A stretch of DNA of 64,000 nucleotides from Octopus vulgaris (lineage: Eukaryota). The first letter of the stretch is position 1; each line of letters opens with the position of its first letter. The stretch lies in NCBI GenBank assembly GCA_951406725.2, contig OX597814.1, forward strand, positions 19,282,001-19,346,000, in the 5' to 3' direction. The translations under genes were made by a program, and so were the position numbers. Shown in pieces: positions 26,651 to 29,506 of the stretch. A model generated the notes under the pieces. That model saw only the letters and a list, made by a program, of their open reading frames with translations, was not told the origin of the DNA and did no database searches.

Positions 26651-26708
<58 letters not shown>

Positions 26709-26717
<9 letters not shown>

Positions 26718-27117
26718 TTAGAGACAAAACCACTATTATGCAAATCAAACAAAGAAAGACTTAAGCCAATACATAAAATAATTTATATAAATTTAGAAAT
26801 TTAACAATTATAAATAACCACTAGGAGTTCATAGTTTAAAACTCGACAAGAAGGTTTTGAAACCACCTGAAGAATGTCTCAAAGATGTGCTGAAATAAGA
26901 CATGAAACGATCGTAGTGGTTATTTATAATTGTTAAATTTCTAAATTTATATAAATTATTTTATGTATTGGCTTAAGTCTTTCTTTGTTTGATTTGCATA
27001 ATAGTGGTTTTGTCTCTAATTTAATATAATATAATATTTTACTATAAAATTGGATTCAATCCTAAATCTGATTTTTCCCTGTAAATTTGGATTTATTCCC
27101 TAATATTTATTATTAAT
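26709..27117 (+). mobile_element. Non-coding fold-back Penelope-like/retrozyme-like element in (TA)n
   Basis: Perfect 115-bp inverted arms 26709-26823 / 26914-27028, hammerhead at the inner edge of the right arm, unpaired ~90-bp tail, (TA)n on both sides. Confidence 0.8.
26861..26921 (+). ncRNA. Type I minimal hammerhead ribozyme (Penelope-like)
   Basis: Stem I AACCAC/GTGGTT, core CTGAAGA, stem II ATGTCT/AGACAT, GAAA, palindromic stem III CGATCG, GUA cleavage after 26915. Confidence 0.88.
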
Positions 27118-27133
27118 ATATATATATATATAT

Positions 27134-27970
27134 AACTTACTTGGAAGAAGACGACGCGTGCGTTCGATCATATAATAAAAAATTTATAAATTAGACATAT
27201 GCATACATACATATATGTACATACCTACATCTATATGTATATATACATGCATATATAAGTAAGTAAAAGAGTATATATGGGTACAGGGCACCACAAATAA
27301 ACGTAGAACACAACGAGAAACGAAAACATAAAAACAAAACAAGGAAACGGACCTTTTTTAACAACGAAAAAACAGAGTACAAGACAAACAACATAAGGAA
27401 CATTTCCCTTCTTCAGCTGCCCCTGTTTCGACTCAATGCGTGTTTCGATGGTAAGGGCAGAACACAACTACTTTAAAACAATCCTTCCCGCAAAGCGAAT
27501 TAAATAAAAAAAAATTGCGGAGGGGTTAAAAAAGGTGACTAGAACAGGACGTAAAAGCAATACAAATAAAGAAAAAAACAGTACAAATAAAGATAAAAAC
27601 AGTAAAAGACAGGACAAGGAAACCAACAATAAGGATTTTTTTAAGCCTAGACGGTGGAAAAATTCATTTGAACGCATTCTGAAGAACGGCTTGCGAGGAC
27701 AGAAAAAGCCGATGTTGACTTGTTGAAGGCAGTAGACAGAAAGAAAGTTAGTAGCTCTCTGGTCAGTGACGAGAGGGAGGAGGAAGAGGAACGGTGAAAG
27801 GGAGAGAAGAAACCAGAAAGGGTGAAAAATAAGAGAGGGAGAGAGACAGGTAGAGAGGAAGACAGACAGGCAGGGAGGAAAGGTCAAGTAAAGAGTTAAG
27901 AGTGCGCGTCATAATTATTGAAATAAAACTTACTTGGAAGAAGACGACGCGTGCGTTCGATCATATAATA
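27134..27970. mobile_element. ~800-bp non-coding element with 44-bp terminal direct repeats, in (TA)n; relatives at ~28010-28390 (inverted) and ~60490-61165
   Basis: Exact repeat AACTTACTTGGAAGAAGACGACGCGTGCGTTCGATCATATAATA at 27134-27177 and 27927-27970. Colinear similarity to 60490-61165. Confidence 0.75.
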
Positions 27971-28381
27971 ATATATAATTTTTTTGTATATATATATATA
28001 TATATATATACAACCATTCCTCTTTCTTCTCTCCCTTTCTCTTGCTCCTCCTCCCCCTCCCGTCGTTTACCCGCGATGAGACTTCCGCTACTGTCTTTTC
28101 TAGCTTGACCTCCTCAAGGTGTGGACGGCAATTCTTTTTGCTCCGTTCGTCGTTCACAAAAAAACATGGCGACTGAAGAAGGGTTTATTCTTTGTGTTAA
28201 TTGTCCTGTACTCTATATTTTTTTGTTGTTAAAAAAATGTTCAGTTCCCTGGGTTTGTGTCTATGTTTTCGTTTCTCATTGTGTTCGACGTTTTTTTGGT
28301 GTCCTGTACTCATATATGCGTGTATATATACATGTAGAGGTTGGTACGTACATATATGTATATATATATGCATATGTTTTT

Positions 28382-28482
<101 letters not shown>

Positions 28483-28616: not shown

Positions 28617-28662
28617 AACACCTGAAGAAGGCTATAGGGTATATCAGCCGAAACGTTGTGTT
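28617..28662 (+). ncRNA. Type I minimal hammerhead ribozyme
   Basis: AACAC-CTGAAGA-A-GGCT..AGCC-GAAA-CG-TT-GTGTT, with an ACGT palindromic stem III. Confidence 0.78.
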
Positions 28663-29506
28663 AACAACAAACAAGATGAGGACAAATACCTGTCGAATGA
28701 AATAATGTAAATAATGTATATATATATATATATATATAGAATAGTTAGAGCTTTGGCCTCCTATCATGAGGTAGGAAGTTCGATTCTCAGACCAGGCCTT
28801 GTGTTGTGTTCTTGAGCAAAACACTTTATTTCACGTTGCTGCAGTTCACTCAGCTGAGGAAATCTAGTTGCGACGTCGCTGGTACCAAGCTGTATCGGCC
28901 TCTGTCTTTCCTTTGGATAACATCGGTGGCGAAGAGAGAGGAGAGTGGGATGCATGGGTGACTACTTGTCTCCCATAAACAACCTTGCCCGCACTTGTGC
29001 CTCGGAGGGGAACTTTCTTGGAACAATTCCATGGTTAATCGTGACAGAAAGGGGTTTTACTCTTTATGCACAAGTTTAGCTAATTGCCAGGGAAAAGGCT
29101 ACTCGATACTACAGTAAAGTTTAATAATGTATTTTATTTTGATCGTATCAGCATCTTGCAACTCCGAGTTTCACCCGTAGAAACAGAGGATATTCAGCGA
29201 ACTTATCAGTAATAATTTTTCCTGAACATCCTGTGCATCTACAGGTAAAAGTCAGAGTAACAAGATAAGGACTTGACTAAAATAATGAGGGTGTATGTGT
29301 GTGTGCGCGTATATATTTAGAAATATGTATATACACACATACATGTGCCAAAGTTTTGATAGACATATGCTTTTCCATAAATTGTCTGTAATCTCCCTTC
29401 AATTATTCATTTTCATCTATTTTAGTTTAGTTTTTTGTTATTAATTTCTTGATTTATATATACACCCCCACATGCATACATACATACTTACATACATACA
29501 TACTTG

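Follow-up and report, generated by a model that had tools for sequence, protein, structure and literature searches.

Penelope-like elements (PLEs) are known for inverted 5′-truncated copies, tails, (TA)n targeting and hammerhead ribozymes, and the accessible part of PMC8557442, from which this list is taken, names the origin of PLE inverted pseudo-LTRs (pLTRs) and tails as an open question. For the Hydra clade (Hydra-1_Obim, Penelope-13_HM), the same text describes a single ORF with reverse transcriptase (RT) and C-terminal GIY-YIG domains, a (TA)n target and a canonical hammerhead, and it notes a 5′-truncated inverted copy for Penelope-13_HM. The octopus family reported here shares all of these features. 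It differs in three features that go unmentioned in the accessible text: a tail of ~90 nt, where 30–40 nt is typical, an intron of ~1 kb in the 5′ UTR and a majority of spliced, cap-reaching copies.

Penelope of Drosophila virilis, a member of a different clade, has a pLTR with the transcription start and a 5′-UTR intron ending just before hammerhead stem I, as well as inverted 5′-truncated copies with a tail; in these respects the available descriptions match the octopus family. Penelope is known to retain the intron in its genomic copies, whereas about two-thirds of the junction-reaching arms in octopus are spliced. Poseidon PAc from Anolis carolinensis (PMC11167929, available part) likewise has an AT-rich target, a hammerhead upstream of the start sites and a mostly uncut template. 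In that system, two internal RT start sites define the tail, both target strands are extended in vitro, hammerhead mutants have no effect on insertion and no RNA reads end at the cut. The start sites of PAc lie inside the ORF and those of the octopus family in the 5′ UTR; no in vivo trace of cleavage was found for PAc, whereas in octopus a signal at the cut is preserved in the genomic copies. The available part of that paper does not deal with inverted duplication from a single RNA. For PLE hammerheads in general, the text of PMC4209133 at hand reports in vivo evidence for cleavage to be absent.

Two further systems share part of the architecture. Metazoan non-LTR retrozymes are, in the accessible parts of PMC7229834 and bioRxiv 2026.07.22.740005, also short, ORF-less and PLE-related, with a type-I hammerhead. 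They form head-to-tail tandems with one ribozyme per unit, whereas the octopus copies are head-to-head fold-backs or single copies, bounded by the cap and RT start sites. Chimeras of U6 and LINE-1 (PMC6789731, accessible part) carry the same U6 3′ end of about five Ts on a retroelement RNA, for which a 5′-OH partner is needed. There, L1 is joined at no favoured position, by way of a nuclease that has yet to be identified; in octopus, the junction lies at the element's own predicted ribozyme cut, occurs in both arms and involves a PLE.

Layout and parentage of the octopus element

The window is a 64,000-nt stretch of Octopus vulgaris DNA (OX597814.1, positions 19,282,001–19,346,000), numbered here from its first letter. 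A sequence-only reading had described in it a fold-back with exact 115-bp arms, a 90-bp spacer and (TA)n flanks, and these coordinates hold on recheck. The arms (26709–26823 and 26914–27028) are reverse complements at 115 of 115 bp; complementarity first breaks at 26824/26913, with 26824–26913 (90 bp) as the spacer. The tail ends at ~27116, and (TA)n occupies 26654–26713 and ~27117–27134. Two finer points of that reading were borne out: the outer arm end falls inside a TAATATA run that merges into the (TA)n target, and the arm alignment places the inner end of the inverted arm (26709–26823) 2 nt 5′ of the predicted cut. The features are as follows.

26654–26713, no strand: left-flank (TA)n target, 30 copies, 100%
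26709–26823, minus strand: inverted arm, putative cDNA from internal start site B; outer end fixed, inner end variable in the family
26824–26825, plus strand: junction, with one filler G (26824) and a G absent from the genomic promoter (26825)
26826–26853, plus strand: exon 1 (28 nt), whose first base is the likely transcription start; 25/28 identical to L090
26854–27116, plus strand: exon 2 of the 5′ UTR, with hammerhead, arm and tail; 255/257 identical to L090
26861–26921, plus strand: type-I hammerhead, predicted cut between 26915 and 26916; Rfam match, family conservation
26914–27028, plus strand: duplicated arm in sense orientation; its end is internal start site B
27029–27116, plus strand: tail between fixed ends B and T, predicted hairpin, on one arm only
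27117–27134, no strand: right-flank (TA)n target

The type-I hammerhead that had been recognized from the sequence alone, with its predicted cut after A26915, matched Rfam Hammerhead_1 at 26861–26921 when 101 bases were searched; the score of 20.4 bits (E 0.0056) falls short of the gathering score of 34. A 6-kb Rfam search did not list the hammerhead and returned only microsatellite-driven miRNA matches. The core is present with stems I–III, and the 2-bp stem III with its palindromic loop is the usual weak metazoan type. In monomer folding, the active hammerhead is not the minimum-energy structure (–6.8 kcal/mol when constrained versus –11.9 kcal/mol; z –0.98). Two copies are predicted to pair via the stem III palindrome, an arrangement described for metazoan PLE hammerheads in the available part of PMC4209133. 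Across 230 copies, stem II pairs 2–5 are kept in 222–227, including across subfamilies; the length of loop 2 differs between subfamilies, and the stem III loop is always palindromic.

The parent element is an RT-encoding one. Five of the 27 matches to the element's 5′ end run into a GT intron of 940–1285 nt, and the AG end of the intron in genomic copies immediately precedes the hammerhead. In L090/L091 the order is EN (GIY-YIG) ORF, 3′ UTR, start site, intron, hammerhead and tail. A protein search gave 153 matches, many in frames of >820 aa, and in six ORF-bearing copies the start codon lies 61–63 nt after the tail motif. The full ORFs (838–852 aa) have RT motifs and a C-terminal V.YKC...YIG domain, with a pLTR upstream; those examined are from sister subfamilies, 83–92% identical to the window subfamily in the pLTR. 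No intact full-length copy of the window's exact subfamily was seen, this subfamily being linked only to 5′-truncated ORFs. The Penelope-like origin proposed earlier is borne out by this RT and GIY-YIG ORF linked to the same tail, and the autonomous partner predicted to share that tail was found in the ORFs lying directly after it.

A Pfam search of the ORF gave no useful match; the 40 related proteins that were found carry Argonauta and Octopus names, and none is labelled a PLE. DKG is changed to DKT (residue 128); CxCx5C, CxxC and CxH occur at residues 691, 797 and 826; CCHH is absent; and a single Cys lies between the two GIY-YIG strands. The accessible part of PMC8557442 gives DKT, CxCx5C, CxxC, CxH and the lack of CCHH as marks of the Hydra clade. 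RIKWK at residue 41 is similar, though not identical, to the N-terminal RWK motif of that clade. Placed by DKT, CxCx5C, CxxC, CxH and the lack of CCHH, the ORF belongs to the Hydra clade of C-terminal EN+ PLEs. The Neptune clade was considered and set aside, its CCHH endonuclease motif and CX2-5CxxC linker not being found. The hammerhead sequence differs from that of Hydra-1_Obim, which indicates another family. The fold-back in the window is a real feature, from a new family of a known clade. Judged by its sequence, the window copy, ~400 bases long, is a processed, intron-less 5′ UTR of a Hydra-clade Penelope-like element. Intron-less inverted copies of this kind number in the hundreds, and the window copy, taken alone, is an ordinary member of its family.

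A recent insertion had been deduced from the perfect identity of the arms. The copy is indeed young, but arm identity alone gives no age, as both arms likely derive from one template; the 255/257 match of exon 2 to the intron-bearing L090 is better evidence of youth.

Other elements lie nearby. Directly to the right is an older, diverged fold-back of another family (27134–28330), with a ~73% inverted match of roughly 27170–27415 to 28170–28395 and a ~45-nt direct repeat at 27134 and 27927. One insertion elsewhere (L223) is followed by an end similar to that of this neighbour. A short copy at 28617–28720 ends in (TA)n, contains a minimal hammerhead-like motif and is probably from another PLE family.

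Paired arms, splicing and the template RNA

A 24-nt arm motif had 1874 exact matches genome-wide (2.8 Gb) and its reversed control none, which marks it as a family feature rather than a chance match. The first 67 insertions by position comprised at least 43 fold-backs, 23 single arms and one other; 43 is a floor, as long fold-backs extend beyond the extracted loci. Insertions sit in (TA)n targets. Outer ends fall at two fixed places ~90 nt apart, B and T. Of 200 pairs (all loci examined; not an unbiased sample), 195 consist of one B and one T arm, with the tail on one arm only, and this supports the earlier proposal that priming on (TA)n was two-sided and made use of an internal start site. 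Inner ends vary widely, over >1 kb. The 39 arm–arm junctions showed microhomology (18), blunt joins (5) or filler (16, some of which are mismatches to the reference).

A DNA-transposon-like MITE with the arms as terminal inverted repeats, raised by the sequence-only reading as an alternative in the form of fixed TIRs, would account for an inverted repeat with a fixed outer end in a TA context. Yet the arms are variable and asymmetric, the tail lies outside the repeat on one arm, the intron is gone, and the element to which the arms belong encodes an RT. We consider a MITE next to impossible. One caveat here is that a target-site duplication is unreadable inside (TA)n.

Alternatively, a single tail cDNA could fold back, copy itself as far as the internal TAATATA and join the other target end. 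This would yield identical arms, common U6 junctions and a common splice state without a second initiation, and it would suit the many junctions that fall in palindromes. However, the tail arm should then be the longer in every pair, and among 39 pairs the tail-less B arm was longer in 16, the T arm in 13 and neither in 10. Nor can it give the two full-length arms of L023, with 212 bp of copied flanking host DNA between them, or the fixed tail-less ends of copies that lack a visible partner (19/67). Because either arm can be the longer, the folding back of a single cDNA is in effect excluded, and we hold it to be most unlikely.

What, then, was the template? Among the first 100 of 372 junction matches, counted by eye, 65 were spliced, 29 were intron acceptors and 6 were other. 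Spliced and intron-bearing forms are both present in six subfamilies, and an upstream promoter motif was found in none of 113 spliced arms. An additional G precedes +1 in 17 of the 29 spliced arms reaching that position versus 0/9 intron-bearing copies; after dropping eight palindrome-ambiguous junctions, the comparison is 9/21 versus 0/9 (P = 0.007). Reverse transcriptases copy the RNA cap, and we infer that the extra G is a product of such copying. The DNA copies place the likely transcription start at +1, which is 26826 in the window copy; there, the splice junction lies between 26853 and 26854, and the extra G at 26825 was likely copied from an RNA cap.

Arm pairs were also concordant. Both arms were spliced in 27 pairs and both unspliced in 8, with no mixed pair and 165 uninformative ones (n = 200), and a U6 fusion was present in both arms of all seven U6 fold-backs. 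This agreement (35/35 and 7/7) indicates that both arms were likely copied from one RNA, although gene conversion between arms could account for part of it.

A self-propagating, non-autonomous mini-element or retrozyme, mobilized in trans from spliced genomic copies or circular RNA, is very unlikely. The copies are short, ORF-less and numerous and carry a hammerhead; one tandem of 114-bp units, each spanning the cut to site B, does exist (L230, below); and the available part of bioRxiv 2026.07.22.740005 derives retrozymes from PLE pLTRs. Against this, spliced copies occur within the same subfamilies as intron-bearing ones, none has a promoter, they begin at the likely cap and not at the cut, no tail-to-start tandem was found among 27 start-site matches, and the L230 array is without a ribozyme. 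The mini-element described by the sequence-only reading is, at least in the window, probably a dead-end processed product of the 5′ UTR of an autonomous mRNA, without self-propagation.

We are fairly confident that the intron-less inverted 5′-UTR duplication arose when one capped, spliced and uncut mRNA was copied twice, onto both ends of a (TA)n break. An mRNA starting in the upstream pLTR would carry the RT start signal twice, in the 5′ and the 3′ pLTR. Initiation at the 3′, unspliced signal would give long, intron-bearing insertions, and initiation at the 5′, spliced signal would give short, promoterless copies such as that in the window. The element's RT would initiate at two fixed internal sites and copy onto either end of the break. 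Displacement of the first cDNA by the second RT would make the two arms span the same RNA, and the 3′ ends of the two cDNAs would then be joined by host repair. If this is true, the inverted pLTRs and the one-sided tail are explained in one step, and fold-backs archive the cap, splicing, ribozyme cut and ligation of the RNA 5′ end. With >1000 arms in the genome, the questions of pLTR origin and in vivo cleavage become countable. Searches of open-access literature (titles and abstract starts) gave no report of both PLE fold-back arms coming from one RNA and none of a majority class of spliced, cap-reaching PLE copies, although older subscription work on Penelope may describe spliced ones.

Several loci depart from the simple pattern. 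Fillers of ~120–230 bp separate the arms in L023, L147 and L371, with host DNA beside the insertion as the source in L023 and L371, which suggests synthesis-dependent end joining. The 212-bp insert of L023 was considered as upstream element sequence and rejected: it has only two occurrences, both local, and is templated host filler. L230 (G000:C9:98160960-98161263) is a head-to-tail array of 114-bp units that extend from the ribozyme cut to site B and lack the ribozyme; the units share mutations, and thus a single junction was likely amplified later. Four insertions (L451, L454, L462 and L468) carry the beginning of the ORF (~55 nt past the start codon) fused upstream of an arm with a tail. 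All four fusions fall at a common ATGTATT-like point, which may be a further, third RT start site or a place where template jumps recur. L255 (G000:C7:70741640-70741904) is part of a larger host-DNA inverted duplication; its two arms face outwards and each ends at the cut.

Arm ends at the predicted cut

Genome-wide, 1105 of ~1190 arms (~93%) read through at least 3 nt past the cut. The non-read-through rows numbered 32, 65 and 17, of which 24 were false (13 by locus view, 11 by printed match alone). Among the 87 distinct arms that remained, 25 proved to be point mutations, one was ambiguous and four were repeat rows of a single event. The other arms had true ends, 27 of them at position 0, a further 14 at –1 and the last 16, which include the window copy, at –2. 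The 57 ends at these three positions compare with 22 expected (P = 6e-5), and the 27 at position 0 with 7.4 expected (P = 8e-6), where the background is 22 ends in 3530 arm-bases from only 98 read-through arms, on C1 and early C2. As local controls, +2 had no true ends (3 relevant rows of 36) and –3 had two of nine. Position +1 had 13 true ends in 27 rows, so the peak at the cut is a few nucleotides wide. Breakpoints mapped relative to the GUA site across the genome, as the sequence-only reading had proposed, are hence enriched at the cut.

The partners of these arms point the same way. Partners cross the cut in 1 of 18 fold-backs that have an arm end at position 0 and in 11 of 21 with an end at –3 to –45 (P = 0.002); for arms ending at –1 and –2, the partner crosses in 5/13 and 3/10. 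Among 42 unbiased fold-backs, the longer arm extended past the ribozyme core in 16, ended at –4 to –60 in 8 and at –3 to +21 in 17, and ended further 3′ in 1. Part of the pile-up at +5 to +20, in AT-rich palindromes, may reflect a joining bias without cleavage. Cut RNA was likely the template for at least ~3% of arms and perhaps for up to ~40% of fold-backs. In this fraction of transcripts, the hammerhead would have cut earlier, and both cDNAs would stop at or just short of the cut.

For the family, the data support the earlier idea that cDNA ran off a ribozyme-made 5′ end; for the window copy they do not. That copy had been read as a short arm made from ribozyme-cut RNA and a long arm made from a second, uncut RNA. 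In favour of two RNAs, the short arm ends 2 nt from the cut, family ends are enriched at 0 to –2, and partners that read through do exist among fold-backs at –1 and –2. However, two templates would be needed, and arms agree in splice state and U6 fusion without exception; almost no partner of an arm at position 0 crosses the cut; the eight read-through cases at –1 and –2 are close to the background rate; and the extra TA matches uncut RNA, with no (TA)n at the window junction as a source. We therefore regard the two-RNA explanation as unlikely. Since the long arm of the window copy reaches the cap, a single template would have been uncut, and the proximity of the short-arm end to the cut is probably a coincidence.

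U6 fusions

In two independent insertions of the window family, L292 and L565, the U6 3′ end with its five Ts (Rfam match to U6, 102.5 bits) directly adjoins the first base after the cut in both arms. U6 ends at most 200 nt upstream of an arm comprised these four arms and one unrelated U6/SINE neighbour. Facing U6 ends were found at seven loci, corresponding to seven fold-backs in six families; an eighth locus, L505, was left out of the count, as it has a rearrangement in common with L559. At the other five loci, the partners of U6 are five additional high-copy families, and the join falls on the base that follows a hammerhead-like motif, exactly in three families and with T-run ambiguity in two.

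One of these five families has a canonical core and four have non-canonical ones, namely U3:A8; A3:U8 with U13; G3:C8 or G3:U8; and U3:A8 with C13, in hammerhead position numbering. A U3:A8 core is known from Schistosoma (PMC4209133, available part). One of the further families is preceded by a GIY-YIG ORF of the same orientation, and for the remaining ones PLE status is suggested by architecture. A GIY-YIG ORF beside the fourth U6-partner family was rejected as its partner because it lies on the opposite strand.

How might U6 reach the cut? According to the accessible text of PMC6789731, RtcB efficiently joins the U6 cyclic phosphate only to 5′-OH RNA, and according to that of PMC7229834 it ligates hammerhead products in vitro. 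Given these precedents, ligation before reverse transcription is the likely route: the 5′-OH cleavage product would occasionally be joined to U6 snRNA, likely by RtcB, and then copied. The U6 ends examined (~50 of 205) are mostly U6 genes or U6/SINE fusions, and since fusions to SINE 5′ ends are common without a ribozyme, template switching is possible. Each of these routes needs an RNA end at the cut.

The enriched arm ends and the U6 fusions together likely record self-cleavage of the family hammerhead in living cells. From genomic sequence, we lean towards a broader joint reading in which PLEs insert by copying a single RNA twice, fold-backs archive the RNA 5′ end, U6 fusions report germline cutting, including that by non-canonical cores, and cut RNA is the source of up to ~40% of fold-backs. 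As parts of it, the balance tips slightly towards U6 fusions being natural reporters of PLE hammerhead cutting, and we give a small preference to the view that standard hammerhead searches miss cores with U3:A8, A3:U8, G3:C8 or a changed A13. The four non-canonical cores are nominated as candidates. The test is portable, in that U6 fold-backs in any PLE-rich genome would make the cut site readable. In open-access literature (titles and abstract starts), we found no report of U6 at PLE ribozyme sites, and the accessible part of PMC11838501 mentions neither ribozymes nor Penelope.

In most dispersed U6 copies (L413–L442, L471–L489), the fusion partner is the 5′ end of a SINE from one of a few families, and the same loci include U6–U6 and tRNA-like–U6 fusions. 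A tandem cluster of seven U6 genes lies at G000:C1:139.42 Mb.
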